From positions 1,170,001 through 1,202,000 of the forward strand of contig NC_000918.1 in NCBI RefSeq assembly GCF_000008625.1: a stretch of DNA of 32,000 nt, given 5' to 3'. The notes beneath the pieces are model-generated. The model had not been told where the DNA came from, ran no database searches, and was given only the letters and a program-made list of their open reading frames with translations. The stretch is from Aquifex aeolicus VF5. GTDB lineage: Bacteria; Aquificota; Aquificia; Aquificales; Aquificaceae. This document shows, one piece after another, positions 2,067-27,185 of the stretch. Position 1 is the first letter of the stretch; every line of letters begins with the position of its first letter. The position numbers and the translations under genes were made by a program.

Positions 2067-2557
2067 GGGTTTTAAAGATACTGCTTTTTATAATCTTCTT
2101 CTCTTTCGGTGTTGAGGCTGTTCCCTTTGAGAAAATCTCATTCCTGAACTTAAAAGAGGATCTGGAGGAGGCTAAAAAGGAAGGGAAGTACTTATTCATA
2201 ATGTTTGAACAGGAAGAATGCCCTTTCTGCGATAAGATGAAGAGGGTTACCTTTCAGGATCCCCGCGTTAGAGAGTACTTCACGAAACACTTCTACATGG
2301 TGAGGATAGATATAAAAGGTTCTAATCCCGTTGTGTACTTTGACGGGACGGAAATGACTGAAAAGGAACTCGCCCACAAGTTCAGGGTTAGGGCAACGCC
2401 TCACTTTGTTTTCTTTGACCACGAAGGTAAAAAGATACTCTCTATCCCCGGATACATACCGCCCGAGGAATTTCTACTAATCGGTAAGTACGTAGCCGAA
2501 GGTTACTACAAAAAGATGAGTTACTTTAAGTTTAAGAGAATGATAAAAAAGGATTAA
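2063..2557 (+). CDS. Secreted thioredoxin-fold protein (SoxW/thioredoxin-related, CxxC)
   Basis: There is an N-terminal signal-like segment (MRVLKILLFIIFFSFGVEA). A CPFC redox motif sits in FEQEECPFCDKMK, followed by RATPHFVFFD, which resembles the cis-Pro loop region of thioredoxin-like proteins. An ATGA overlap joins it to the upstream gene. Confidence 0.7.
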   Translation: MRVLKILLFIIFFSFGVEAVPFEKISFLNLKEDLEEAKKEGKYLFIMFEQEECPFCDKMKRVTFQDPRVREYFTKHFYMVRIDIKGSNPVVYFDGTEMTEKELAHKFRVRATPHFVFFDHEGKKILSIPGYIPPEEFLLIGKYVAEGYYKKMSYFKFKRMIKKD

Positions 2558-3765
2558 TGTGGTTTTTAATCCTCCTCGTAGGTTTCAGTTTTTCCCTCCA
2601 GATATCCCTCAAGGATGCCTTAGAACTCGCCCTTAAGAACAACAGAACCTTGAAAAAACTTGAAAGAGAACTCAGTTCTGCGGTCTACAGGGAAAAGTTG
2701 AGCCTGTGGGAGAGGTTTTCCCCCGAAACGGACGTAAGGGTTTCAAGGGACAGGCTAGAGCTTGTGGCGAGGGTTTTGCTCCTTGAGTTCGGAAGGAGAA
2801 CGAAAAACATAAAAGCGGAGGAACACAGGAAGAAGATAGCGGAGTTAACCCTTCTGGAGTTCAAAAATAGGCTCAAAATTGAAGTCACGGATCTTTACAT
2901 AAAACTCCTACTTTACGACGTTATGGCACAGGAGAAAAGGGAGTTTATGGCGGTTGCCTTCGTGAGGTTTGACAGGGAAAGGGAGAAAATGAAACTCGGA
3001 CTTTCGGATAGGGTAAAGGTCTCGGAACTTGAAAAAGTTTACAGAAAGTACAGAAAAGAACTCTTTGAAGTTCAGAGGAAGTACAACGAAACCCTTTACA
3101 GGTTAAAACGCTACCTCGGTCTGAAAATGGAAGAAGATCTGGAAATAAAGCCTCTTAAATTCAGGATACCCTTCGAAAAAAACTTTAAGGAGAAAGTTTT
3201 ACTGGATAAAGTGAAAAATAATTACAAATTAAAGATAAAAAATCAGGAAATCGCTTACTACAGGGAACTGGAGAAGGGTGAAAGAACGCTTTTCAAACCC
3301 GAGGTGGTGCTGGAGGGAAGGTTCGGAAGGGATTTTGATGAAAAGGATTACTATACTAAGTTCAACACGTACATTAACATTCCCATTCTGGATCCGAGAC
3401 CTGAACTGAGGAGAAAAACTTTAAAAGAAAAGAGGCTGGCTTTGATGAGGGAGTACAGAGAACTGGAAGAGGAAGTAAAAGAGAGGGTTTACACCTTTCC
3501 CTATATATGGGACGAAATAAGGGAAAACTACAAGTACGCGAAAACTTACTTCAACTGGGCTGAGAATAACCTCGAGAAGAAGCGTTCGGAGTACGAACTT
3601 CAACTCGCCTTTGATCTCGGGTACGCAATGGCACACTACACGGAAGCGGAAAGAAAACTCTTAGAAGTGAACAGAAGGGCACTCCTCTTTCTGATGGAGG
3701 TTTACCATACCGTGGGAGAAGATCCGGTGAAGGCTCTGGGAAATAAACATCCGTTCCTCGAGTAA
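2557..3765 (+). CDS. TolC-family outer membrane efflux protein (OEP)
   Basis: The N-terminus has a signal segment followed by ISLKDALELALKNNRTLKKLERELSSA, a typical OEP start. The rest is long and helix-rich. A TAATG overlap joins it to the upstream thioredoxin-like gene. Confidence 0.75.
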   Translation: MWFLILLVGFSFSLQISLKDALELALKNNRTLKKLERELSSAVYREKLSLWERFSPETDVRVSRDRLELVARVLLLEFGRRTKNIKAEEHRKKIAELTLLEFKNRLKIEVTDLYIKLLLYDVMAQEKREFMAVAFVRFDREREKMKLGLSDRVKVSELEKVYRKYRKELFEVQRKYNETLYRLKRYLGLKMEEDLEIKPLKFRIPFEKNFKEKVLLDKVKNNYKLKIKNQEIAYYRELEKGERTLFKPEVVLEGRFGRDFDEKDYYTKFNTYINIPILDPRPELRRKTLKEKRLALMREYRELEEEVKERVYTFPYIWDEIRENYKYAKTYFNWAENNLEKKRSEYELQLAFDLGYAMAHYTEAERKLLEVNRRALLFLMEVYHTVGEDPVKALGNKHPFLE

Positions 3766-9921: not shown

Positions 9922-10711
9922 AAGGATAAGGGAAATAAAGGAAAAGGAACAGGAAGAATTAGTAAGGAAAATATCGGAACTACTAGCGCTCGAAAGAGAA
10001 CTCGAAAGGAAACTTGAAGAACTCCTAAGAGAATACGACAGAAAAAGCCAGAGTGTAAATACCTTGAACGAAATCTTCAAGTTAAAGGCCATAACTAGAA
10101 AAATAGAGGAAACCGTAGACTACTTGGAGGAATTGAACGTCAAAAAAGAGGAGCTAAAAGAAAAGTATCTGGAGTTAAAAGGTGAGATAAAGTCAATAGA
10201 GATACTGGAGGAGAGGAAAAAGAGGGAAAAAATCAAAAAGGAAATAGCGGTAAGCCTTCAAGAACTTGGATTTATGCATCTCGTAAAGAAGATAATTCCC
10301 GTTTTTTTTATGTTTTTCTCCTTCCTCTTTTCTGAAAGTGCCACACAAAAAGCATTAAAAGATAGCATTAACTTAAAAGAGGATTACAAGGTTCTCCTGA
10401 AGTTGATAGAGGAAAAGCTAAAAAAACTGGAAGAGGAGAGGAAAAAGCTCGAAGCCCTGCAAAAAACACCCTTGACGGAGGAGGAAAAGAAGAAACTGGA
10501 AAAGCTGATTAAATCCGTGGAGAAAGCCCCGGCGGACGAGATAGCTCCCGCTATAGAAAACCTTCCGCCCAAGTTAGCGGCGGAGATACTTCTGAGGATT
10601 AAGGAGAGGAAAGCAGGTCAGATACTCGCAAATATGAACCCTCAGAAGGCTTCAGAAATTATGAAGTACATACTTGAAAGAAATCCCAGCTTCAACGCTC
10701 AGGTAGATTGA
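9914..10711 (+). CDS. Coiled-coil (FliJ-like?) N-terminal part, one TM segment, and a C-terminal MgtE_N-type domain (YlxF/FlbB-like flagellar accessory protein)
   Basis: The C-terminus IAPAIENLPPKLAAEILLRIKERKAGQILANMNPQKASEIMKYIL matches the MgtE intracellular N-domain repeat. A hydrophobic segment KKIIPVFFMFFSFLFS lies mid-protein. The N-terminal 120 aa are charged coiled coil. Confidence 0.5.
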   Translation: MFKRIREIKEKEQEELVRKISELLALERELERKLEELLREYDRKSQSVNTLNEIFKLKAITRKIEETVDYLEELNVKKEELKEKYLELKGEIKSIEILEERKKREKIKKEIAVSLQELGFMHLVKKIIPVFFMFFSFLFSESATQKALKDSINLKEDYKVLLKLIEEKLKKLEEERKKLEALQKTPLTEEEKKKLEKLIKSVEKAPADEIAPAIENLPPKLAAEILLRIKERKAGQILANMNPQKASEIMKYILERNPSFNAQVD

Positions 10712-11771
10712 AGTACTTTAAGATAGCCCTGTAAATCGCGTAAGCGAACTTTTTCTGGAAGTGTCTGCTCCTTAACTTTCTAGCTTCGTAAGGGTTCGTT
10801 ATAAATCCGGCTTCTATTAAGACTGAGGGTATTCCAGGCGTCTTGAGGACTGCAAAGTTTGCCCTCTTTATCCCCTTAAAGCGGACGCTCCTTCTCATAG
10901 TTCTCTTTATCTCCCTTGCTAGTATCTTTGCAAAGTCAACGCTGTCCTCCAAAGTTACCCTGAAAGCGAGGTCTGAGATGATCAGCCTCAATTGTCTGTT
11001 CCTCGGATCTCCTCCCCTTATTATCTGCCCGGCGTAACTCAGGTCACTCAGGAGCTTGCTCTTCTTCTGTTTTGCACCTCTGTAAGAAAGGGCGAATATC
11101 TGAGTGCCCCTCGCGTAGGGTCTTCTCTTAGGTGCCGCGTCCGCGTGAATGCTTACAAAGAGGTGTGCCCTGTTCCTTATAGCTATCTGTGCCCTTTTCT
11201 CTAAAGGAACGAAGTAATCCCCCTTCCTCGTCATAATTACTCTAAACCTTCCGTCCCTTTTGAGGTAGTAAGCGAGATACTTCGCTATTTGAAAGTTTAC
11301 CCACTTCTCTTTTATTCCCCTCCAGCCTATGGCTCCGGGATCCTTCCCGCCGTGTCCCGCATCCACGACAACCGTAAACTTTCTCGGCTTTACTCTTATC
11401 CTTTTTTCCTTTATAAGATCAACAACGAGTCTGTCTGGATTCTTCAAGGTAAAGGCCCTTACTGAGTACTGTTTTTCCGGTTTTAAAACCACCCTCCTTC
11501 CCCACGGGTGCTTACCGAGTTTGTAAGAAATGCCCTTCGGCAGGCGAACTCTCTTTATCCTCACGTCCTTACCGAGAAGGTCTATTACTATCCTGTATGG
11601 TCTCTTTAAGACGAATATCCTGTACTTCGTCTCCTTTGATAGGTCAAAAACTACCCTTACCTTGTCTTTATGAATTCCGTGCCTTATTTTGACGAGATTC
11701 AGAGGGAAGGTAAAGCTTACAAAAAGTAAAAACAGTAAGACCTTAAAACTGGTCGAACTCCTTAGGAGCAC
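10692..11771 (-). CDS. N-acetylmuramoyl-L-alanine amidase (AMIN domain(s) + Amidase_3)
   Basis: A signal segment comes first. AMIN-like stretches are KDKVRVVFDL...YRIVIDLLG and PDRLVVDL. The catalytic motifs VVVDAGHGGKDPGAIG and FVSIHADA follow. A GTG start overlaps the upstream gene by 29 nt. Confidence 0.9.
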   Translation of the reverse strand: MLLRSSTSFKVLLFLLFVSFTFPLNLVKIRHGIHKDKVRVVFDLSKETKYRIFVLKRPYRIVIDLLGKDVRIKRVRLPKGISYKLGKHPWGRRVVLKPEKQYSVRAFTLKNPDRLVVDLIKEKRIRVKPRKFTVVVDAGHGGKDPGAIGWRGIKEKWVNFQIAKYLAYYLKRDGRFRVIMTRKGDYFVPLEKRAQIAIRNRAHLFVSIHADAAPKRRPYARGTQIFALSYRGAKQKKSKLLSDLSYAGQIIRGGDPRNRQLRLIISDLAFRVTLEDSVDFAKILAREIKRTMRRSVRFKGIKRANFAVLKTPGIPSVLIEAGFITNPYEARKLRSRHFQKKFAYAIYRAILKYFNLPER

Positions 11772-13401
11772 TGACTTCCTCCTCCACCTCTTCCTTCTTA
11801 GTAGCCCACGGAGCCAAAGGAAACTTTATCATCACGGGGTTGGGAATGTCTGGCTGGTAGAGTATCATCGTCCCCTTCTTTAGCATTATAGCCCTCTGTC
11901 TAAAGTTTCCGGTCAGGAACTCGTACTCTTTGCTGAGGACTTCACTGCTGTCAAGCCTTCCCGTTACCTTTACCGCTGCGTTAGCTACTATCCTCTTCTC
12001 AATTTCACTTGCAGTTTGCTGTGCTCCTATTAGTATAACTCCTAAACTCCTTCCTCTTTCCGCGATGTCGAGCAAGATTTCTTTTATGGGACTCCACTTG
12101 TCCTTAGGTGCGTATTTATTTAATTCGTCCAGAACGACGAAAATTTTAGGGTAGGGATTTCCCGTCTCTTCTTTTTCTCTGAATATCTTCTTGAGTATTG
12201 AACCAACAACGAACATTTTGGCTATACCGTGGAGATCCGATATGTCTATTACGTTGAGCTGGTGGGAGCGCCAATCTATGTGCCTGGATTTATTTCCGTG
12301 AACGAGGTGCTTGCAGTGGGAAGCGGCGTGGTGAAACCTCCTCAAAAAGGCGTATGCGGTTGCGGTTGCAGCCGTTCCGAACCACTCCCTGTAGCGGTCG
12401 GGATCTCTCTTCGTTTCCCTGTCTTCTATAACCTCGTGCAGGAGCTTTAAAAGATCCCCGAGAGAGTTTATCTCCTGACCGTTTTCGTCAAGTAGCACGT
12501 CTCCCGGGCTTTCCTTTGCAAGTTGCTGGAGTTTTTCTGAAACCCTGTCTATTACGTAGTGGAGTGAAGTCGCCCCTTCGTCTCCTTCCGCAAAGAGAAA
12601 CCTCAGTAATCCTTCCTGTGCAAAGTCCTTCATGGACCACTTGTAGGGAAATACCCCTTCCAGTCTCTCCCCCGAGGATGGGATCTCGCTCCACTCCTGT
12701 TCGGGAGGTGCCCAGAATGCAACGTTCTTGAAAGGTTCTGGCGGAAGACCCAGTTTTTCAAAAGCCTCTCTGTGTTCCTTAGTAAACCTCTTGTTCTTCT
12801 TGTCTATCCACAAAAGATCTTTTCCTTTTACGTTGAATATTATCCCGTGAATCTTTGTCCTGTCGTCCGCCTTCTGGAATATAGAGTATAGAAGGAATAG
12901 GGCGTAAGAAGTTTTTGTAGCAACTCCGGACATACCAGAAATTGATATGTGAGCCCCTTCCCTTCCGTTTATAAAGTCGTAATTGAGGTAAACAACCTCT
13001 CCGTTTCTCGTAAGCCCTGCGGGAATCTTCCTTTTCATATTGTCGTAGTAGAGGGCTTTTTCAAAGTCTATTCCCTCGGCTTTAAAGACGTAATCACCGG
13101 GTGTAGGAGGTATGAACACTTCTGGTTCTATACGGGTGACGGAAACCCTAGCCATGTAAGCCAAGTTTGCAGGAACGACCCCGCTATTTACAAGCTGGGC
13201 GTCATATACAAGTTCAACACCTTCCAGGTACTTTATAACTTCCTGAACGATCCCGTAGAACTTTATCTCCTCATTAGTTCCGTCTATTTTTGAATTAACT
13301 ACTACGACGTCGTCAAGTTGAAGGAATTTTCCCTTTTCTACCCCTACCCAGAACTCAAGGGGGTTTGAAGGCTTTGTTCCTAAAACTATTCCCACTTTCA
13401 T
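11743..13401 (-). CDS. HerA/FtsK-superfamily ATPase (DUF87-like) with an N-terminal barrel and a deviant Walker A
   Basis: The N-terminus is HAS-barrel-like (VGIVLG...FLQLDDVVVV...FYGIVQEV). The P-loop region is HISISGMSGVATKTS. Walker B is IFVVLDELNKYAP. The distal RGRSLGVILIGAQQ is also present. Confidence 0.7.
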   Translation of the reverse strand: MKVGIVLGTKPSNPLEFWVGVEKGKFLQLDDVVVVNSKIDGTNEEIKFYGIVQEVIKYLEGVELVYDAQLVNSGVVPANLAYMARVSVTRIEPEVFIPPTPGDYVFKAEGIDFEKALYYDNMKRKIPAGLTRNGEVVYLNYDFINGREGAHISISGMSGVATKTSYALFLLYSIFQKADDRTKIHGIIFNVKGKDLLWIDKKNKRFTKEHREAFEKLGLPPEPFKNVAFWAPPEQEWSEIPSSGERLEGVFPYKWSMKDFAQEGLLRFLFAEGDEGATSLHYVIDRVSEKLQQLAKESPGDVLLDENGQEINSLGDLLKLLHEVIEDRETKRDPDRYREWFGTAATATAYAFLRRFHHAASHCKHLVHGNKSRHIDWRSHQLNVIDISDLHGIAKMFVVGSILKKIFREKEETGNPYPKIFVVLDELNKYAPKDKWSPIKEILLDIAERGRSLGVILIGAQQTASEIEKRIVANAAVKVTGRLDSSEVLSKEYEFLTGNFRQRAIMLKKGTMILYQPDIPNPVMIKFPLAPWATKKEEVEEEVSAPKEFDQF

Positions 13402-13450
13402 GTTTTGCCCCTCTTTCAGATAAACTTACTCCTAAAGAGGATTTTAACAC

Positions 13451-16099
13451 CTAATTCAGTATTATTTTTGTGTTTAAAACTTTATTTTCCTCCCCGTCGG
13501 GTGGTGCCCAATGCGCATCCGGAGGCGTTTTTTCCACGGGAGACCACGGGTGTCCTTTCGGGATTATTATTTCCGAATCTTTTACAGTGTTAAACCTTGA
13601 ATAACCGCCGTGGAAGTTTACATCAACGAAAAAAGTGCAGTTTTTCACCACATTTCTCGAAGAAGCCCACTGAATTACAAAGTGCCTCACACCTTTTACG
13701 TAACACTTTACAAACACTATTCTGTGGGACTTGTAAATCCTGACGTATCCGTTTCCCCCTTTCCCTTTATTCCAGCTCCCGAAAGCTTTAAAGTTTTTAA
13801 CTTTAACACCGTAGCTGTTTTCAAGGCTAAGAGGATGACTACCTGCCATAAGCACCTTTACGTTTATAAGGGAACTCTCCGATACCCACCTGAGCCTAAT
13901 TCCATCAACTTTATACCCGGGAAACAAATTCTCGTAAACGTACTCAACTTCGCGCGGGTCGTGGTCAGGGACTTCCTGATAAAGTGTCAGGTTTTCTATC
14001 CTGACGTTCTTTACAAACTCAGGAGCGTAAACCACGCTGTTAGGAGGGTAATCTATCTCCACGGGTTCTGACAGAATAATCCTATTTCTGCGAACTTCCT
14101 CAACTCTGTAAATTCCCTGTCTCAAAAAAGGCTTTTCCTTTTTCCAGACCCTTGAGCCTATACTCTTCAAAAACTCCTCCGTATTAGGAGCACCTATCCA
14201 GACGTAATTGAGTTTTCCTTTTACTTCTCTGTCCAGAAGTAATTCACTTTCACCTTTTCTCACACCCTTTAACGTATAACCTAGCTTTTTTCCTTTACTC
14301 CCGGAAACCTCTATAACGCTTTTGTCTTCGCCCTTTATCTTTGAAATTATCAGAACCTTTCCTTTTCCTTTCAGCGTGATATTTGAAGTATTTATCTTTA
14401 CGGGTCTGTAAACGCAGTAAGTTCCCTGTTCTATGTAAATTTCATTTACTCCGCGTTTTAGTGCCATTTCAATTTTACTTTCCAGTCCTTCCTTGCAATC
14501 TTTTATTTCTGCAGAAAAGGCAAGTCCGGGCAAGGGCAGCGGACCGAACCTCGGGAGCTTGAAAACACCCACGTACAGCCCTACGAAGTATACGTAAAGA
14601 GTTATGTAAAGAACTATTAATCCGTACCTCAGCATAGTCCTGAGAGTTTTGAAACTGTGAATTTTTGCCTGTATTTCCTGTTTTGCGTGTTTAGCCCAAC
14701 TCTGTTTTGCTAAGTTTGATGAAGCGTAAATCTTCACTACTGAACCTACCCACTTGTCGTAAACTTGGAGAAGTAGGTGTAGTATGTGAGGTGTGAGGCG
14801 TGAAATAAAAAACAACCACGTCAATTGAAGCGTTCTTATCCATATTACCCATACCGCGTAAAAGACCCAGTAAAAGGGAGATATAAAGAGGGAGAGAAGG
14901 GTTGCACCTGTGGGCCCAACTAAACTCGTCCACATGGAAATCCTTTGATCCACTATAGCCCACCATATGAACCAGCTTCCTATTTTCTTCGGACCTAGCT
15001 TAATAGCCCTCCAGTTATTCCTGAGCATATTCCCGTACCACCTGAACATGAGGGATATAGAAATCTTAAAGAAGTTTCCGCTCCTTTCCTCCACAGACCA
15101 TGTGAGTGCGTCCGGAGCATAAAGCATATCCCAGCCGTTTTTCAGAAGGTAAAACCACGTACTTTTGTCGTCTCCCATCAAGAACCTGAACTTACCGAAC
15201 AGGTAATGCTCAAGTTTATCTGCTTCAACAAACCTTATGAATTCTTCATTCAATACTACATGAGCCCTGAATACGGAAAACCTCCCTGTTAAAGTCAGAA
15301 CTTTCCTGTAAAGGCTGTGGGACATCATCATCATGTGTCTTCTTGCGAACTTTAACCTGTACCAGAGCAGTAAGAGGAAGTTCTTTCCGATGTAGTGAAC
15401 CTCTTCATCGGTCGTTACCGCCGCTATTTTCGGAGAAAGTTTAAAGAGCGGAAGCGTTTTTTTGAGGACGTCCTTTCCCAAAACAGTATCCCCGTCCATG
15501 AACACTATAAGGTCATCCTTGTAATCCCTGTGGAAGTAAAGAGGGTGCGTAAAGTGTCTGGAAATGGCACGGAGGGTGTGTCCCATAGCTACCCTTTTAC
15601 CGAGCTCCTGATACAGAAATATGAGCTTTATCTTTTCCTTGTAGTCGTAAGCTCTAACTACCTGCTCAATGAAGTCCGCTTCCTTTTTAGACCCAACTGC
15701 TACGAATACGTAAACCTCAGATGGAATTTTGTAGCATTCCTGAACAAGGGACATGAAAACGATTTCCGAAACCCTTGGACTCTCTTTATAGGAGGGAATC
15801 ATGAAGTATAGCCTTCTGGGATAGGGATTTTTAACCTTCTTTAATATTCTCCTGTACTTGGGATACACGTAGAAGTTGTATATAAGGGCGTTTAGAGCGT
15901 TAATTGCAAACCACGTGTACCTCCATACACCTATCGCTGCTATGGCTAAAAAACCGTGAAACTTCAGGTCCCACGCTCTTCCCGGAAGTAAGGCGAGTAT
16001 TATGAAGGAAATCCCAAGCCAGAAGAACAGAAATAAAAGAAATTGGGGCCAAGATTTTGGAAAATCTTCTCTGGAGGAATAAGCGAGATTTGGTTTCAT
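13451..16099 (-). CDS. Alg8-like membrane family-2 glycosyltransferase (polysaccharide synthase) fused to a C-terminal periplasmic right-handed beta-helix domain
   Basis: N-terminal TM helices come first. GT2 motifs are LIVFMDGDTVLG, LTLTGRFSVFRA, FRFLMGDDKSTWF and LMFRWYGNMLRNN (the xxRW motif), plus VDQRISMWTS. More TM helices follow, then 356 aa of repeats such as NITLKGKG, VRIENLTLY, NVKVLMAG, VKVKNFKAFG, IVFVKCYVKG and VVKNCTFFVD. Confidence 0.75.
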   Translation of the reverse strand: MKPNLAYSSREDFPKSWPQFLLFLFFWLGISFIILALLPGRAWDLKFHGFLAIAAIGVWRYTWFAINALNALIYNFYVYPKYRRILKKVKNPYPRRLYFMIPSYKESPRVSEIVFMSLVQECYKIPSEVYVFVAVGSKKEADFIEQVVRAYDYKEKIKLIFLYQELGKRVAMGHTLRAISRHFTHPLYFHRDYKDDLIVFMDGDTVLGKDVLKKTLPLFKLSPKIAAVTTDEEVHYIGKNFLLLLWYRLKFARRHMMMMSHSLYRKVLTLTGRFSVFRAHVVLNEEFIRFVEADKLEHYLFGKFRFLMGDDKSTWFYLLKNGWDMLYAPDALTWSVEERSGNFFKISISLMFRWYGNMLRNNWRAIKLGPKKIGSWFIWWAIVDQRISMWTSLVGPTGATLLSLFISPFYWVFYAVWVIWIRTLQLTWLFFISRLTPHILHLLLQVYDKWVGSVVKIYASSNLAKQSWAKHAKQEIQAKIHSFKTLRTMLRYGLIVLYITLYVYFVGLYVGVFKLPRFGPLPLPGLAFSAEIKDCKEGLESKIEMALKRGVNEIYIEQGTYCVYRPVKINTSNITLKGKGKVLIISKIKGEDKSVIEVSGSKGKKLGYTLKGVRKGESELLLDREVKGKLNYVWIGAPNTEEFLKSIGSRVWKKEKPFLRQGIYRVEEVRRNRIILSEPVEIDYPPNSVVYAPEFVKNVRIENLTLYQEVPDHDPREVEYVYENLFPGYKVDGIRLRWVSESSLINVKVLMAGSHPLSLENSYGVKVKNFKAFGSWNKGKGGNGYVRIYKSHRIVFVKCYVKGVRHFVIQWASSRNVVKNCTFFVDVNFHGGYSRFNTVKDSEIIIPKGHPWSPVEKTPPDAHWAPPDGEENKVLNTKIILN

Positions 16100-17541
16100 C
16101 AGAAGAACCTCTTTATATATCTGATAATATAGGGCTCGTAATGCTTCGGTGTTATCTCCACCTCCGCTTTTATCCCGTGGTGTAGCTCCTGAGGATACTC
16201 GAAAAGTTCTATCTTCACGGGAACGTCCGGAAGGGCGTACTCTTCACTTTCCGATATCATACTCTCGTCTCCCAGAGCCTTCTTACCTATGGCAATTACT
16301 TTGCCTTCCACGGTCTTTTCTATACTCGGGAAGTAGACACGAGCTTTATCCCCTACGTTTATGTAAAGTACATCCCTCTTTTTAAACCTCGCAATTACGT
16401 AGCCCTTTTTCTCTAAACTCTCTATCACCATAACGGGCATACCCGGTGTGAGAATCTGTCCTTCCAAGTAGTAAACCGAAAGCACTATCCCGTCAAAGGG
16501 AGCCCTGTAAATCTCAAAGTTGTCCTCTTCATCCCCTCCTCCGCCACCCGCGTAAAAGCTGCCCAGCTCCTTAAGGAGTGTGTATAAGAAAGCCAGATAC
16601 CTCTCGTCGGCACTCTTTTCTTTTTCCAACTCCCTTAAGGACAGGAGAAGCTCTTTATACTCATTTTCTTTATCTTCGTACACACTCCTGCTTATGTACC
16701 CGAGCTCAAAGGCGCTTTTTGCTTTTTCAAGTTCTACTTTTAAACTTCTTAGGCGGAATCTAGTGGCTTTTATCCTTTCATCAAGCAGGGCTATCTTATT
16801 CTTAGTCTTCTCAATTTCCCTTAGTATGGCAGCCCTGTCTCTCAGTATCCTAACACCAACACCCCCGTATCCGTCCTTTTCATCCTCTATCCTTGAGGTC
16901 TTAAAAAGTACTTGATTTTTCCTTACTTCGTCCCCTTCCTTCACGTAAACCTTTTCGAGGATTGCCTCCCAAGGCGTGATTAGAGAAACTACGTTTCCCG
17001 AATAAAACGCATCAACACTGTAAGCTTTCGGCGTAGCCCAGAATACGAGGTAAAGCCCGAAAGCAAGGGCTAAGGCTATTAAAAGGTATACAAGTATCGC
17101 TATAAATAACTTCCTGTTTAGCCTTCTTTCCTCTTCTTCCGTTAAAGGTTCCTCTATAGGCGGTGGGACCATAAGGCGTTCAGCGGTACTCAGGAATTCA
17201 CCGAATTCTTCCAACCTCCCCTCTATGTAAGCCTGTACATACTTCTTTAAAATCTCTTTGGCTTCATCGGGCAGTTCCTTAAACTCAAAACCAGCCTGAT
17301 CTTCACTGCTCCACTTGTTTATAGCTTCAGCATTTATGGCAACGTTGAAACTTGCAAAGGGAAGTATGAACTTTACTTTGTAAACTTTGTCTTTTTCAAA
17401 TACATCCTCCTTACTTTTCTCTATCCTGAAACCTTCGTAGGACCAGTCGAGGACTTTGTACTCCTTTCCGTCAATTGAGACTTTTGCAGGTATTTTTAAT
17501 CTGTAAGTTTTTCGGAGGTGGGCGTCCTCAAATTCAGCCAT
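16099..17541 (-). CDS. Alg44-like protein: N-terminal PilZ domain, one TM helix, periplasmic HlyD-type membrane-fusion domain
   Basis: PilZ motifs are RKTYR (RxxxR) and DWSYEG (DxSxxG). The TM helix is LFIAILVYLLIALALAFGLYLVFW. A coiled-coil hairpin and HlyD-type barrel-sandwich motifs are present (YRAPFDGIVLSV, VGDKARVYF...VEGKVIAIG). The ATGA overlap at 16099 joins it to the synthase gene. Confidence 0.75.
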   Translation of the reverse strand: MAEFEDAHLRKTYRLKIPAKVSIDGKEYKVLDWSYEGFRIEKSKEDVFEKDKVYKVKFILPFASFNVAINAEAINKWSSEDQAGFEFKELPDEAKEILKKYVQAYIEGRLEEFGEFLSTAERLMVPPPIEEPLTEEEERRLNRKLFIAILVYLLIALALAFGLYLVFWATPKAYSVDAFYSGNVVSLITPWEAILEKVYVKEGDEVRKNQVLFKTSRIEDEKDGYGGVGVRILRDRAAILREIEKTKNKIALLDERIKATRFRLRSLKVELEKAKSAFELGYISRSVYEDKENEYKELLLSLRELEKEKSADERYLAFLYTLLKELGSFYAGGGGGDEEDNFEIYRAPFDGIVLSVYYLEGQILTPGMPVMVIESLEKKGYVIARFKKRDVLYINVGDKARVYFPSIEKTVEGKVIAIGKKALGDESMISESEEYALPDVPVKIELFEYPQELHHGIKAEVEITPKHYEPYIIRYIKRFF

Positions 17542-19078
17542 CCAAAATCCTCCTTATTATTTCTTCTTCTTTTATGTCCATAAAGTAGATTAACTTCTGT
17601 ATATAGACGTAGTTTATGTACTTGAGGTAAATTAATTGTTCAAGCCTGTGGTATGTATCGAGTAAGTTCCTGAGTATAAGCGTGTAATTTGCCTCTCTCA
17701 AGCCGTTTTTCCAGAAGTAAATTTCCCTTTCTATCTCTAAAAAATTCACGTTTATCTGCTCAAGATGGTTAACTATATTTGAATAATTCCTGTTTATTCT
17801 TGAAATATAATCGAAAAGGAAGGAATAAGTCGTGGCATACGAAAGACGAGCACGCTCTTTAAAGGAAAGAATTTCTAGTTTATCAACCTTACCCAGGTCC
17901 GTAATTATATAAGGAATAGGCAGTTCAAACCTGAGTCCTAATGCCCAGAAATCTCTGGTGTTTCCGTCCTTTCCAGCGAAGTAGTACCTTGCAAATACAT
18001 CAAGGTCCGTGTGTCTGAGGTAAAACCACTTATCCGTGGTCTTTATTTCAAACTTTTTCAGATACTCCTCCACATCCTTTTTCCTTTTTTCGTAGTACTT
18101 CATAAATTCCTCTACGTTTATCTTCATTGGCTTTAAAAAGAAGCCGTTACTTACACTCTCTATTCCCTCTAATTCCTCCTTTTTTATCAGTTCTCTGTAA
18201 GGAAATCCCAAACTTTTATCGTAGCTTTCCGTAAATTTCACCCAGTCCTTTAATAAACTTAAGGTTTTATTCTTTTCACTTTCTACAACTCCCAGTTCGT
18301 ACTTCAGTCCTTTTAAAAATACCTCTTCCTGACTCTGAAAAGCCAGTAAGTAGGTGTACTCCTTTTGTATGTCAAATTCGGAAAATAGTTTTGCAAACTT
18401 TGCTCTTTCCTTTTCGTACTTAAAGTCTGCAAATCCCCTCCTGAAGAAGGAAAGTTTAAGTCCCAAATAACTGTACCACTTGTCCCCCAGGAGATTTTCC
18501 CCCGTTAAAGCCTTTCCCCTGTACCTGAACTCTCCGTTTATATACAGAGGAAAGGCTCTCTTGTAACTCTTTTCTTTCTGTTTGTACATCTCTACAACGG
18601 TGCTCTCTAACTTTTCAAAGGGCTTAACTTTTGTGGTGTTCCCTCTTGCAATAATTTCAGTTAATTTCTTCAGCTCCTCTATATTCTTTTCAAGAAGCAT
18701 TAAGAAGTTTTCCTTTGTAGTTTTACTTTCTTCAATTTCCTGTTGCTCGAGGGTTATCACCTTTTCAGGCTTGGGAAATACAACCCTACTTAGGTCATAT
18801 TCGCACACTCTTACAAAAGCATCTCTATATTTCTCCTTTATTTCGGGCAAAATTTTTAAAACGTCACTCTTATTTAAGTAAAACCCTATTCTGAGGGTGT
18901 AAAATCCACCTATTTTTTCAATTCTTACGTTGTCCATGTTTTTAAATTTTTCAAACAAAGGTATTAGATCTTCTAATTTTTCGGAAGAAGCTACTTGAAC
19001 GCAGTAGTAATTTTCTGATCTTGCAACGGATATGGTTATTAACAAAAGTAATAGAGAAAGAAGCACCCTTTTTCTCAT
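17534..19078 (-). CDS. Secreted SPOR-like domain + TolC-like outer-membrane channel protein
   Basis: The signal peptide is RKRVLLSLLLLLITISVARS. The SPOR-like block is YYCVQVASSEKLEDLIPLF...GGFYTLRIGFYLNKSDVLKILPEIKEKY. Two strand pairs (LYINGEFRYRGK/WYSYLGLKLSFF and LDVFARYYFAGK/FWALGLRFELPIP) are separated by long helical stretches, as in TolC repeats. The ATG at 19078 sits behind GGTGGGGG and is preferred over the GTG at 19087. It overlaps the downstream gene by 8 nt. Confidence 0.55.
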   Translation of the reverse strand: MRKRVLLSLLLLLITISVARSENYYCVQVASSEKLEDLIPLFEKFKNMDNVRIEKIGGFYTLRIGFYLNKSDVLKILPEIKEKYRDAFVRVCEYDLSRVVFPKPEKVITLEQQEIEESKTTKENFLMLLEKNIEELKKLTEIIARGNTTKVKPFEKLESTVVEMYKQKEKSYKRAFPLYINGEFRYRGKALTGENLLGDKWYSYLGLKLSFFRRGFADFKYEKERAKFAKLFSEFDIQKEYTYLLAFQSQEEVFLKGLKYELGVVESEKNKTLSLLKDWVKFTESYDKSLGFPYRELIKKEELEGIESVSNGFFLKPMKINVEEFMKYYEKRKKDVEEYLKKFEIKTTDKWFYLRHTDLDVFARYYFAGKDGNTRDFWALGLRFELPIPYIITDLGKVDKLEILSFKERARLSYATTYSFLFDYISRINRNYSNIVNHLEQINVNFLEIEREIYFWKNGLREANYTLILRNLLDTYHRLEQLIYLKYINYVYIQKLIYFMDIKEEEIIRRILDG

Positions 19079-19110
19079 AACCCCCACCTGATTGTATTAA
19101 TCTTAATACT

Positions 19111-19527
19111 ATGCTCAAGGTAAAAAAAGAAGTCCTTGAGAAAATGATAAAGCAGGCGGAAAGGGATTACCCTTACGAGACGTGCGGGTTGCTGATAGGA
19201 AAGTCAGAAGGAGGTATAAGGATAGCTTACGAGGCTTTTGAAACCCCTAATGCGAACCCCGATAGAAAACACGACAGGTACGAAATAGCTCCAAAGGACT
19301 ACATGAGGGCGGAAGATTACGCAATTTCAAAAGGTATGGAAATAGTAGGTGTTTATCACTCTCATCCGGACCACCCCGACAGACCTTCTCAGTTTGATCT
19401 GCAAAGGGCATTTCCCGACCTGTCCTACATAATTTTCTCAGTCCAGAAGGGAAAAGTAGCCTCTTACAGGAGCTGGGAACTGAAAGGTGATAAGTTCGAG
19501 GAAGAAGAGGTAGAGGTTTTCGAGTAA
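19111..19527 (+). CDS. JAMM/MPN+ metalloprotease (Mov34/Mec+ family)
   Basis: The glutamate region is YPYETCGLLIG. The JAMM motif is complete: HSHPDHPDRPSQFD (HxHx7SxxD). Confidence 0.85.
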   Translation: MLKVKKEVLEKMIKQAERDYPYETCGLLIGKSEGGIRIAYEAFETPNANPDRKHDRYEIAPKDYMRAEDYAISKGMEIVGVYHSHPDHPDRPSQFDLQRAFPDLSYIIFSVQKGKVASYRSWELKGDKFEEEEVEVFE

Positions 19528-20183
19528 TGGGACTGAAGGAAACGATAAAAGCCCTGGAAAGCATAGGGATAACGGAAATATACTTAAACAGGAAAATGGA
19601 AGAAAAGAAAGAGGATAAGTTTATCCTTCTAAAAAACCTCTACGAAGAGTGGAAAGACTGCACGAGGTGTGACCTTCACAAGAGCAGAACAAGAGTAGTT
19701 CCCGGAGACGGGAATCCTTACAGTCTTCTAGTCTTTGTGGGAGAGGCACCTGGTGAGGAAGAAGACAGACAGGGAAAACCTTTTGTAGGGAGAGCCGGGC
19801 AACTTTTGAATAGACTCATAGAGGAAGTTCTTGGAATGAAAAGGGAAGATGTTTACATAACGAATGTGTGCAAGTGCAGACCTCCCCAAAACAGAAAGCC
19901 AACGCCTATAGAAATGAGGGCATGTTTCCCTTACTTAAAAAAGGAAATTGAAATAATACAGCCTAAAGTTATTTGCTGTCTCGGAGCTACAGCAGGTGAA
20001 GGAATTCTAGGAAAGAGCTTAAGAATTACTAAAGTGAGAGGGCAGGTATTCCCTTATCCATACAATCCGAGGATAAAAGTCTTCTTAACTTACCACCCTG
20101 CCTACGTCCTTAGAAATCCGAAGGAAGAAACCACGATAATAAAGGACTTTGAAAAACTCAAAGAACTCCTCACTCAAGAATAG
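19527..20183 (+). CDS. udg: Uracil-DNA glycosylase, family 4 (Fe-S type)
   Basis: Motifs: CTRCDLH, GEAPGEEEDRQGKPFVGRAGQLL, NVCKCRPPQNRKP and HPAYVLRN. A TAATG overlap joins it to the JAMM gene. Confidence 0.9.
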   Translation: MGLKETIKALESIGITEIYLNRKMEEKKEDKFILLKNLYEEWKDCTRCDLHKSRTRVVPGDGNPYSLLVFVGEAPGEEEDRQGKPFVGRAGQLLNRLIEEVLGMKREDVYITNVCKCRPPQNRKPTPIEMRACFPYLKKEIEIIQPKVICCLGATAGEGILGKSLRITKVRGQVFPYPYNPRIKVFLTYHPAYVLRNPKEETTIIKDFEKLKELLTQE

Positions 20184-22070: not shown

Positions 22071-23654
<1,584 letters not shown>

Positions 23655-23711
23655 ATAACGGAGACAAAAGCTCCCCACAAAAGGGGAGCTCATCCCTGTC
23701 TAGTGCATATA

Positions 23712-23744
23712 AAAGGAGGAGAGGCTCACCCTCTACTCAGTTGC
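23712..23744 (+). repeat. 3' arm of the 16S rRNA processing helix
   Basis: AAAGGAGGAGAGGCTCACCCTCTACTCAGTTGC is the reverse complement of 21973..22005. Confidence 0.85.
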
Positions 23745-23759
23745 TCCCCTTGCAAAGCA

Positions 23760-23833
23760 GGGCCTCTAGCTCAGCTGGTTAGAGCGTGCCCCTGATAAGG
23801 GCAAGGTCCCAGGTTCGAGTCCTGGGAGGCCCA
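23760..23833 (+). tRNA. tRNA-Ile (anticodon GAT), CCA not encoded
   Basis: The sequence is GGGCCTCTAGCTCAGCTGGTTAGAGCGTGCCCCTGATAAGGGCAAGGTCCCAGGTTCGAGTCCTGGGAGGCCCA. The anticodon loop is CTGATAA. Confidence 0.95.
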
Positions 23834-23849
23834 TATTAGGGGCACCTTC

Positions 23850-23922
23850 GGGGGTGTAGCTCAGCTGGGAGAGCGCCTGCTTTGCAAGCAGGAGGTCGTG
23901 GGTTCGAGTCCCACCACCTCCA
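23850..23922 (+). tRNA. tRNA-Ala (anticodon TGC), CCA not encoded
   Basis: The sequence is GGGGGTGTAGCTCAGCTGGGAGAGCGCCTGCTTTGCAAGCAGGAGGTCGTGGGTTCGAGTCCCACCACCTCCA. The G3:U70 identity pair is present and the anticodon loop is TTTGCAA. Confidence 0.95.
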
Positions 23923-23933
23923 CTTGGCTCCTT

Positions 23934-23966
23934 GTCAACAGAATAAAGCCTGTACCTCCTCCCGCC

Positions 23967-23977
<11 letters not shown>
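23934..23977 (+). repeat. 5' arm of the 23S rRNA processing helix
   Basis: GTCAACAGAATAAAGCCTGTACCTCCTCCCGCCGGTGTGCAAGT pairs with 26915..26958 over 44 positions. The only deviations are two G-U wobbles. Confidence 0.85.
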
Positions 23978-26914
<2,937 letters not shown>

Positions 26915-26925
<11 letters not shown>

Positions 26926-26958
26926 GGTGGGAGGAGGTACAGGCTTTATTCTGTTGAC
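26915..26958 (+). repeat. 3' arm of the 23S rRNA processing helix
   Basis: ACTTGCACGCCGGTGGGAGGAGGTACAGGCTTTATTCTGTTGAC is the reverse complement of 23934..23977. Confidence 0.85.
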
Positions 26959-26963
26959 GGATT

Positions 26964-27085
26964 GCCCCTGGTGGCCATAGCGGGGGGGAAACACCCGGTC
27001 CCATTCCGAACCCGGCAGTTAAGCCCCCCAGCGCCGATGATACTGTGCCGGCAGCGGCACGGGAAAGTAGGTCGCTGCCAGGGGC
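26964..27085 (+). rRNA. rrf: 5S ribosomal RNA
   Basis: The sequence runs GCCCCTGGTGGCCATAGCGGGGGGGAAACACCCGGTCCCATTCCGAACCCGGCAGTTAAGCC...GGGAAAGTAGGTCGCTGCCAGGGGC. The terminal helix GCCCCTGG/CCAGGGGC closes it. Confidence 0.93.
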
Positions 27086-27108
27086 TTTTAATTTAATTTA
27101 TTTAGAAA

Positions 27109-27185
27109 GGGCCCGTAGCTCAGTTGGATAGAGCAGGGGATTTCTAATCCCCAGGTCGGGGGTTCGAGTCCCTCCGGGCCCACCA
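27109..27185 (+). tRNA. tRNA-Arg (anticodon TCT), 3' CCA encoded
   Basis: The sequence is GGGCCCGTAGCTCAGTTGGATAGAGCAGGGGATTTCTAATCCCCAGGTCGGGGGTTCGAGTCCCTCCGGGCCCACCA. The anticodon loop is TTTCTAA. Confidence 0.93.

Follow-up and report, generated by a model that had tools for sequence, protein, structure and literature searches.

What is a right-handed beta-helix doing at the end of a polysaccharide synthase? This question is raised by aq_1684, a gene of Aquifex aeolicus VF5 that lies in a stretch of 32,000 nucleotides (contig NC_000918.1, positions 1,170,001 to 1,202,000 of the forward strand) analyzed here as a whole and called the window. A single open reading frame (ORF) on its minus strand, 13451..16099 with the stop codon at 13451-13453, translates into 882 aa. 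The product is identical to aq_1684 (AAC07558.1 / WP_010881097.1 / UniProt O67594), which is named 'glycosyltransferase family 2 protein' at NCBI and 'Alginate synthesis-related protein' in UniRef. A preliminary description of this DNA had noted that the protein continues for 356 aa after its last transmembrane (TM) helix and had proposed that this tail is a periplasmic beta-helix fused in cis to the synthase. The tail is as long as described, since 13454-14521 corresponds exactly to aa 527-882, and the quoted peptides (...YGLIVLYITLYVYFVGLYVGVF, NITLKGKG, VRIENLTLY, INVKVLMAG, VKVKNFKAFG, IVFVKCYVKG, VVKNCTFFVD and VNFHGG) all occur in the translation. Judged from its sequence, aq_1684 is a family 2 glycosyltransferase (GT2) synthase of the Alg8/Alg44 type with a fused beta-helix tail. 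We tentatively favor the reading, drawn from sequence and structural models, that the tail is a polyuronate lyase tethered to the catalytic subunit of a synthase-dependent exopolysaccharide (EPS) system, while granting that this could well be wrong.

A processive synthase and a beta-helix in one reading frame

The N-terminal part of aq_1684 contains a GT2 catalytic domain at aa 94-357 (window 15029..15820, minus strand; PF13641, E=1e-59) that is predicted to be cytoplasmic. Its motifs D202-G-D204, G309-D-D-K312 and R353-W354 are invariant columns among 62 homologues, and the protein thus carries the DxD motif, the GDDK region and the xxRW motif by which membrane-embedded processive GT2 enzymes are recognized. 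A full-length AlphaFold2 model was built from a 62-sequence alignment (pLDDT 91.8). When it was compared with solved structures using Foldseek, the closest folds to aa 1-510 were hyaluronan synthases (HAS), chitin synthase Chs1 and the cellulose synthase BcsA. This portion has in common with CvHAS, XlHAS1 and BcsA the order of GT2 domain, interface (IF) helices and TM channel. Pfam and NCBIfam searches over the whole protein and over the tail returned GT2 matches only, those from NCBIfam being weak matches of the glycosyltransferase (GT) domain to NodC and PgaC, and a phmmer search of PDB sequences with the full protein found nothing meaningful.

A scan of one genome per species located 504 loci with a relative of the tail, and the architecture was tallied for the best 80 of them. 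The GT2 domain and the tail lie in one open frame at 56 of these loci and are split or frameshifted at 4. No GT match was found upstream at the other 20, which include 12 actinobacterial loci (L069-L080) with other architectures and several that are cut at a contig end. Fused loci occur in Aquificota, Campylobacterota (Sulfurimonas, Sulfurospirillum and Sulfuricurvum), Desulfobacterota, Ramlibacter/Caenimonas, Rhodothermales, Thermoleophilia, Thermoanaerobaculia, Pseudoalteromonas and others. With the full-length protein as query, the best 120 protein clusters are nearly all 876-1015 aa long with 93-100% coverage, and the only names among them are 'glycosyltransferase', 'glycosyltransferase Alg8' and 'mannuronan synthase'. 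The proposed fusion in cis of a beta-helix to a processive GT2 is therefore borne out by one ORF at 56 of the best 80 loci. The further remark that such a fusion is unusual stands relative to characterized systems but not for the databases, where, by these 56 loci and 120 clusters, it is the prevailing domain arrangement in a large clade.

The tail belongs to a much wider family. Its profile finds 1374 cluster representatives at E<=1e-3, 220 of them at E<=1e-30. Remote relatives carry CBM2, Big_2, RTX or phage minor-tail modules (CBM2, RTX or Big_2 in relatives from metagenomes), and the actinobacterial relatives at L069-L080 (Streptomyces, Actinophytocola, Kribbella and Nonomuraea) lie within ORFs of 650-2500 codons with no adjacent GT2 gene. 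By their domain content these remote architectures are typical of secreted depolymerases and other degradative enzymes, and the actinobacterial and metagenomic relatives probably form a large unannotated family of secreted depolymerases.

The tail is a right-handed beta-helix

The tail (aa 527-882; window 13454..14521, minus strand) consists of a flexible linker and then a right-handed beta-helix. An AlphaFold2 model computed from a 10-sequence alignment of tails has a mean pLDDT of 92.9 and a pTM of 0.91 and is made up almost entirely of short beta strands. Foldseek returned 39 matches to this model in the PDB at E<=1e-3, every one of them a right-handed beta-helix, with query TM-scores (TMq) of at most 0.63. 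The leading entries were 7W1C, 4RU4 and 4Y9V, the best being the Klebsiella K1 capsule-specific lyase 7W1C (E=7e-10). The phage LKA1 tailspike gp49 (4RU4) superposed on the tail model with TMq 0.58-0.63 and a root-mean-square deviation (rmsd) of 4.5-5.6; with the tail taken from the full-length model, the rmsd to 4RU4/4RU5 was 3.8-5.1 A over 338-378 columns. Other matches included the AP22 gp54 tailspike, further phage depolymerases and GH110 enzymes. In the viral library BFVD, the matches were again tailspikes and depolymerases, and TMq reached 0.71. The A-modules of the epimerases AlgE4 and AlgE6 (2PYH, 2PYG and 5LW3) appeared at ranks 33-40 (E 3e-4 to 1e-3), and in the models this likeness is that of beta-helices in general only.

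Pfam families Beta_helix (PF13229) and PF12708 stayed below their cut-offs for the tail (E=0.031, about 14.5 bits against the 26-27 required), and a precomputed PF12708 match is present on some homologues of the fused protein. The parallel beta-helix fold that had been read from repeats in the sequence, and for which a fold comparison had been suggested, is confirmed by the model and by the structural matches. Because the tail profile finds so many representatives, the model is confident and the Foldseek matches agree, the tail is by these sequence criteria a genuine conserved domain rather than a product of chance.

The helix is interrupted by an inserted beta-rich subdomain at approximately tail aa 60-170 (window 14012..14344, minus strand), placed by secondary structure and conservation. 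The insertion holds the invariant residues N113, W126, P131 and R134 (tail numbering, as for all tail residues below).

Sequence kinship with phage tailspike lyases

Searching all PDB sequences with the profile of the 10-sequence tail alignment gave LKA1 gp49 (4RU4) as the best match, at E=4e-4. A broader family hidden Markov model (HMM) was then built from 62 fused tails and 98 remote representatives, the latter having other architectures and E-values of 1e-52 to 1e-36, and the LKA1 genome was fetched for gp49. This HMM matched gp49 with 34.4 bits (the E-value being that of a one-sequence search) over residues 219-462, about 245 residues that include the insertion; gp49 likewise has a beta-barrel insertion (PMC5701251). 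In the alignment, tail residues N251, Y259, R279 and H280 fall on gp49 N430, Y438, R459 and H460, and the motifs NxGxGGxxY and RH are common to gp49 and the tail family. Further on, D497-F-H499-G of gp49 (497-500) resembles N302-F-H304-G of the tail (302-305), by eye only. The nearest relatives of the tail are phage tailspike polysaccharide lyases, and by profile comparison the tail is distantly homologous to those of the LKA1 gp49 class.

The activity of gp49 was established as that of a lyase by nuclear magnetic resonance, its substrate being the O5 O-antigen, in which two mannuronic-acid derivatives occur (PMC5701251). The putative active site described there comprises His494, Asp497 and His499 plus Arg459 and Arg329 (PMC5701251). 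His494 and Arg329 are without secure equivalents in our tail alignments.

The tail had also been likened to AlgG and the AlgE epimerases. The likeness holds for the fold, through the AlgE matches above, and fails for sequence and motif, which leaves it weaker than had been implied and weaker than that to the phage lyases. No AlgG or AlgE chain was found at E<=10 when the tail profile was run against all PDB sequences, and the catalytic signature DPHD/DPHE of these enzymes (AlgG residues 324-327; PMC4436075) occurs in none of the 62 fused tails, as searched with the expression DPH[DE]. A link to AlgE through one remote member (P0118) was rejected, as that protein matches AlgE only via its RTX repeats and not via the beta-helix.

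Conserved residues and a putative groove

Eleven polar residues are invariant in the 62 fused tails (R134, Y196, K252, Y259, R279, H280, Q284, N290, H304, N311 and H324), and D206, H229, D300 and N302 are nearly so. Most of the conservation falls at tail aa 251-311 (window 13589..13771, minus strand), where conservation and the gp49 alignment place a putative catalytic groove with the motifs N251-K-G-x-G-G-N-G-Y259, R279-H280, Q284-W285, N290, D300-x-N302-F-H304-G-G and N311. The core of this set, N-K-G-x-G-G-N-G-Y, R-H, N290, D-x-N-x-H-G-G and N311, is kept in 92-98 of the 98 remote representatives; for K252, Y259, R279, H280, N290, D300, N302, H304 and N311 the figure is 96-98. Because the conserved residues recur about once per turn of the helix (at about 229, 252-259, 279-280, 300-304 and 324), we infer from the model that they line one groove.

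The aq_1684 tail keeps every invariant residue. It departs from the consensus of the fused subfamily at AGSHP in place of AGRHP (S228; tail residues 227-229, window 13835-13840) and at PDGEEN in place of PDGPGN (tail residues 343-346, window 13466-13477). Position 228, which is Arg in the fused subfamily, is Ser in A. aeolicus and in 94 of the 98 remote members.

The tail is predicted to lie in the periplasm

The full-length model begins with a TM hairpin (aa 17-36 and 48-72; window 15884..16051). After the GT2 domain come a long interface helix that bears the RW motif (aa 343-373), two TM helices (aa 376-405 and 409-433) and an amphipathic IF3-like helix (aa 441-461), the last three spanning window 14717..14974. 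A Lys-rich loop leads from the IF3-like helix to the last TM helix (aa 484-510; window 14570..14650; mean hydropathy +1.27), which is predicted to cross the membrane outward and to anchor the tail. A Pro/Gly-rich linker follows (aa 511-538, KLPRFGPLPLPGL; window 14486..14569), all of these features being on the minus strand; it is modeled with low confidence, with pLDDT <50 at aa 518-531. The order is therefore IF2-TM-TM-IF3-TM, linker and beta-helix, and the IF-TM arrangement agrees with that of the HAS/BcsA-type synthases found by Foldseek. In HAS, Chs and BcsA, two TM helices after IF3 return the chain to the cytoplasm, where HAS and BcsA end. Because aq_1684 has only a single TM helix after its IF3-like helix, one fewer than those synthases, its C-terminus should be outside. 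Averaged over the 62 homologues, the net charge is -2.1 for the linker and +0.6 for the loop before the last TM helix.

Natural fission of the gene gives, as far as sequence can tell, the strongest evidence for a periplasmic tail. In several Aquificota the synthase is a protein of 515-532 aa that ends just past the last TM helix, and the beta-helix is a separate protein of 364-371 aa with a typical N-terminal signal peptide (e.g. MKKLFVLFVLLSGFSF...). Its gene lies directly downstream of the GT gene with a 4-nt overlap, in the same operon order. On two contigs of metagenome-assembled genomes from Aquificota (L082:598-3293 and L083:3355-9596), a 527-aa GT2 protein ends after the last TM helix and is overlapped or adjoined by the gene for a 371- or 531-aa beta-helix protein that has its own signal or lipoprotein-like N-terminus. 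The gene order there is an unknown protein of 518 aa, PilZ-adaptor, GT and beta-helix. The helix order, the negatively charged linker and the split homologues with signal peptides all agree with the periplasmic location first proposed, which is a prediction, and we regard it as a strong inference from sequence and model.

Operon partners and the nature of the polymer

The gene upstream of the synthase, aq_1685 (window 16099..17541, minus strand), encodes an Alg44-like co-polymerase in which an N-terminal PilZ domain is followed by one TM helix and a HlyD-type periplasmic adaptor (Pfam PilZ, HlyD_D23 and HlyD_3; NCBIfam adaptor families). Its stop codon overlaps the synthase start by 1 nt. Both PilZ motifs can be read intact from the translation, as R10KTYR14 (RxxxR) and D32WSYEG37 (DxSxxG), and most fused loci have a PilZ-HlyD match immediately upstream of the fusion. 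BcsA, by comparison, carries its own PilZ domain.

Overlapping aq_1685 by 8 nt is a gene for a SPOR-domain envelope protein with a signal peptide (window 17534..19087, minus strand; 517-aa ORF, 514 aa in NCBI; SPOR E=1.3e-7), for which SPOR is the only Pfam match. The C-terminal helical/beta-hairpin region of this protein is homologous to a family that we call fam 1 (hhalign probability 91.8%, E=7e-7), a third conserved gene that flanks 37 of the 80 best loci. Detection needed hhalign, as hmmsearch with the fam-1 HMM missed the window protein. Matches of fam 1 to OEP (PF02321)/TolC-like families are weak (7 of 20 members, best E=1.1e-5), a profile search of the PDB with fam 1 gave no match, and hhalign of fam 1 against the true OEP gene of the window gave a probability of 0.2%. 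That bona fide OEP gene is located elsewhere, at 2557-3765 on the plus strand (E=4e-20). Some fam-1 proteins have a SPOR-like N-terminus of their own, and at other loci a separate small SPOR protein is encoded; a SPOR anchor is unusual in an EPS export system.

None of algK, algE, algG, algX, algL, algI, algJ, algF, algA and algD was found in the scanned ORFs of the window or among 128 sampled ORFs flanking the loci. A Pfam census of the same 128 flanking ORFs turned up no class of precursor or modification gene (AlgD, acetyltransferases) in more than 4 members. In Sulfurimonas, one or two lipoprotein genes of polysaccharide lyase family 7 (PL7; Alginate_lyase2, PF08787) lie directly downstream of the fusion gene (L056 at 11032-12736, L057, L058, L061, L062, L063, L066 and L068). 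These neighbors hint, by their sequence, at an alginate-like polymer and are the only independent hint of this kind.

What the tail may do

In the mechanism that we favor, aq_1684 would be the catalytic subunit of a compact EPS system that also comprises the PilZ-HlyD adaptor and the SPOR/fam-1 envelope protein. The adaptor, responsive to cyclic di-GMP, would probably switch the synthase on, and the cytoplasmic GT2 domain would polymerize and translocate an acidic, probably mannuronate-type, polymer. The chain would exit on the periplasmic face beside the last TM helix, to which a linker of about 25 residues would tie the beta-helix enzyme. There, the ladder of residues N-K-G-x-G-G-N-G-Y, R-H, D-x-N-F-H-G-G and N would probably bind the uronate chain in the groove, and catalysis would probably proceed by abstraction of the C5 proton and then beta-elimination. 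Cleavage would shorten or free the growing chain or remove stalled polymer, as AlgL, BcsZ, PelA and PgaB do in trans. We hold with moderate confidence that the sequences point to a polyuronate substrate, and with weak to moderate confidence that sequence and models point to the chemistry of a lyase rather than that of an epimerase. Beta-elimination is favored because the one solved structure to which the tail shows significant sequence similarity is that of a lyase, because the wider tail family looks degradative and because, to our knowledge, every characterized synthase-dependent system needs a cleaving enzyme.

Several results weigh against a tethered lyase. Asp497 of gp49, called critical by the authors of that work, corresponds by eye to a conserved Asn (N302) in the tail, and both the profile alignments and hmmalign end at gp49 residue 462, before the DFHG motif. 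The link to Alg8 comes through the source annotations of homologues ('glycosyltransferase Alg8', 'mannuronan synthase'). No gene for GDP-mannose dehydrogenase or another sugar-nucleotide enzyme is conserved near the loci (Pfam, 128 flanking ORFs). In the family as a whole there is only a modest charge bias about the last TM helix. The Sulfurimonas loci encode separate PL7 lyases, beside which a further lyase would be partly redundant. Finally, lyases and C5-epimerases have the same first chemical steps, and fold and motifs therefore cannot separate the two.

The main rival to a lyase is a polymer-level C5-epimerase, an analogue of AlgG that would turn mannuronate into guluronate as the chain emerges from the synthase and might shield the chain from lyases. 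In P. aeruginosa (Pseudomonas aeruginosa) the enzyme of this kind is AlgG. This we consider unlikely, though it deserves to be taken seriously. An epimerase would have the fold class as well as those first steps in common with lyases, the AlgE A-modules are significant structural matches, the synthase and adaptor are Alg8/Alg44-like and the separate PL7 lyases of Sulfurimonas mirror the division of labor between AlgL and AlgG. In P. aeruginosa, moreover, polymerization and epimerization are physically and functionally linked (PMC4436075). What lowers its probability is that the DPHD/E signature and any AlgG/AlgE sequence match are missing from the tails and profile search described above, that AlgG is outside the top 50 fold matches with the AlgE modules behind more than 30 lyase and hydrolase chains, and that remote members stand in CBM2, Big_2 or phage-tail contexts typical of depolymerases.

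A glycoside hydrolase that acts on a neutral or amino-sugar polymer, with trimming of the BcsZ/PgaB type and a GT2 domain that is Alg8-like in sequence only, seems to us improbable. Many of the Foldseek matches are hydrolases (GH110, GH28, GH55 and the Sf6 endorhamnosidase), D300 is conserved, an acidic residue is present at position 308 in 96 of the 98 remote members, no uronate-precursor genes are linked to the loci and the NCBIfam matches of the GT domain are the weak ones to NodC and PgaC. However, the invariant set is mostly basic and amide (K, R, H, H, N, N, N and Y) and not a carboxylate pair, position 308 is Ser in the aq_1684 tail, the sole solved structure with significant sequence similarity is that of a lyase and PL7 alginate lyases adjoin the fusion in Sulfurimonas. 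Still less probable is a non-catalytic tail that would bind the polysaccharide in the periplasm and serve as a guide or scaffold, passing the chain on to the adaptor and an outer-membrane component. Inactive AlgG(D324A) does keep a scaffold role and still supports alginate export (PMC4436075), beta-helices such as PfbA, itself a Foldseek match, act as adhesins and the A. aeolicus tail departs from the fused consensus at a few positions (S228; GEEN for GPGN). Against this, polar residues are strictly invariant over upwards of 150 diverse sequences, some of them secreted enzymes with carbohydrate-binding modules, which argues for catalysis, and the aq_1684 tail retains all of them. We give hardly any credence to an annotation or assembly artefact or to a cytoplasmic tail, as the single frame is found in 56 independent genomes as well as in the finished chromosome of A. 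aeolicus VF5, and as the split homologues carry signal peptides.

Comparison with known systems

The system most like this one is Alg8-Alg44 of Pseudomonas and Azotobacter, in which a processive GT2 likewise stands beside a PilZ-TM-HlyD co-polymerase with RxxxR and DxSxxG motifs. A periplasmic beta-helix enzyme accompanies both machines, AlgG there and the tail here, where the location is predicted. The periplasmic enzymes of the Alg8-Alg44 system, the beta-helix C5-epimerase AlgG and the PL5 lyase AlgL, act in trans, whereas the aq_1684 beta-helix is fused to the synthase C-terminus and is without DPHD or detectable AlgG/AlgE sequence similarity. The third partner also differs, being a SPOR/fam-1 protein here, and the canonical alg partners were not found in the ORFs scanned. 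The portions of Bundalovic-Torma et al. 2020 (PMC7112194) available to us describe 'atypical' alginate operons without algKE and algGXLIJF in environmental bacteria, and no fusion is described in them.

LKA1 gp49, phi297 gp61 (4RU4 and 4RU5) and the K1 lyase 7W1C are the best structural matches to the tail. The tail has the inserted beta subdomain, NxGxGGxxY, RH and, judged by eye, probably (D/N)FHG in common with gp49, an enzyme that cleaves beside mannuronic-acid-type residues by beta-elimination. The phage proteins differ in being trimeric and virion-bound, with particle-binding N-termini and C-terminal lectin-like domains, and in targeting the polymer of another cell. The aq_1684 tail, by contrast, is a single module after the TM helix of a cellular synthase and has no virion-attachment domain; no phage genes were found among the scanned ORFs of the window.

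In its proposed role, the tail resembles BcsZ, PelA, the C-terminal domain of PgaB and AlgL, each a periplasmic cleaving enzyme within an export machinery; AlgL reportedly keeps the periplasm, or the conduit, clear. These enzymes are separate polypeptides with folds unrelated to the tail (GH8, GH166, GH153 and PL5), and we know of none that is fused to a synthase. The preliminary description had left room for the fusion to prove both common and already characterized. It is common, but a literature search, with most subscription journals outside its reach, found no earlier description of the fusion or of the three-gene architecture.

Because the fusion is widespread, the sugar polymer probably meets a processing enzyme on leaving the synthase. 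The reason why synthase-dependent systems need a processing enzyme is still debated, and fusion in many species together with splitting in close relatives is strong genomic evidence for processing at the synthase exit, which could be tested in this simple three-gene system. One may go further and see a widespread, possibly ancient, three-protein trans-envelope machine, composed of a PilZ-gated adaptor, a synthase with its own processing enzyme and a SPOR-anchored outer component. It would be a sixth, hitherto unrecognized type of synthase-dependent EPS system, in which both the release and the length of the chain are set in cis at the channel exit, and it would include the first polymerase covalently coupled to a lyase-like domain. 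We regard this broader view as possible but rather doubtful. No Alg8 or Alg44 structure was present in the PDB copy searched, and the thermostable A. aeolicus version would be an attractive structural model for the unsolved Alg8-Alg44 complex. The tail also defines a large unannotated beta-helix family that has a clear motif signature and connects cellular enzymes with phage tailspike lyases. In Aquificota, Campylobacterota and Desulfobacterota, common inhabitants of vents and sediments, the polymer could contribute to the biofilm matrix.

Other features of the neighborhood

At four loci in Campylobacterota (L007:13951-20034, L031, L044 and L053), the Alg8-like cluster adjoins an apparent cellulose synthase cluster that, judged from translations and lengths, consists of a bcsA with a PilZ-like C-terminus, a bcsB-like gene and a GH8 bcsZ-like gene. 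An arrangement such as that at L007 would place two synthase-dependent systems side by side.

In the A. aeolicus window, a scan of 11500-19600 for promoters and terminators found no more sites than in shuffled sequence. A gene for a HAS-barrel (HerA-like) ATPase (window 10692-13401, minus strand) starts 50 nt downstream of the synthase stop codon and overlaps by 29 nt a gene for an AmiC-type N-acetylmuramoyl-L-alanine amidase with an AMIN domain. Neither of these genes is conserved beside the synthase elsewhere. At 1185-2066 on the plus strand is an ORF of 293 aa in which only the C-terminal 120 residues form a HepT-like ribonuclease domain; HepT-like proteins are the toxins of HEPN/MNT-type toxin-antitoxin systems. 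A complete rRNA operon occupies 22071-27185 on the plus strand, in the order 16S, tRNA-Ile(GAT), tRNA-Ala(TGC), 23S and 5S and then tRNA-Arg(TCT). Its G+C content is about 63% and that of the surrounding genes about 43%, a difference to be expected for the rRNA of a hyperthermophile.

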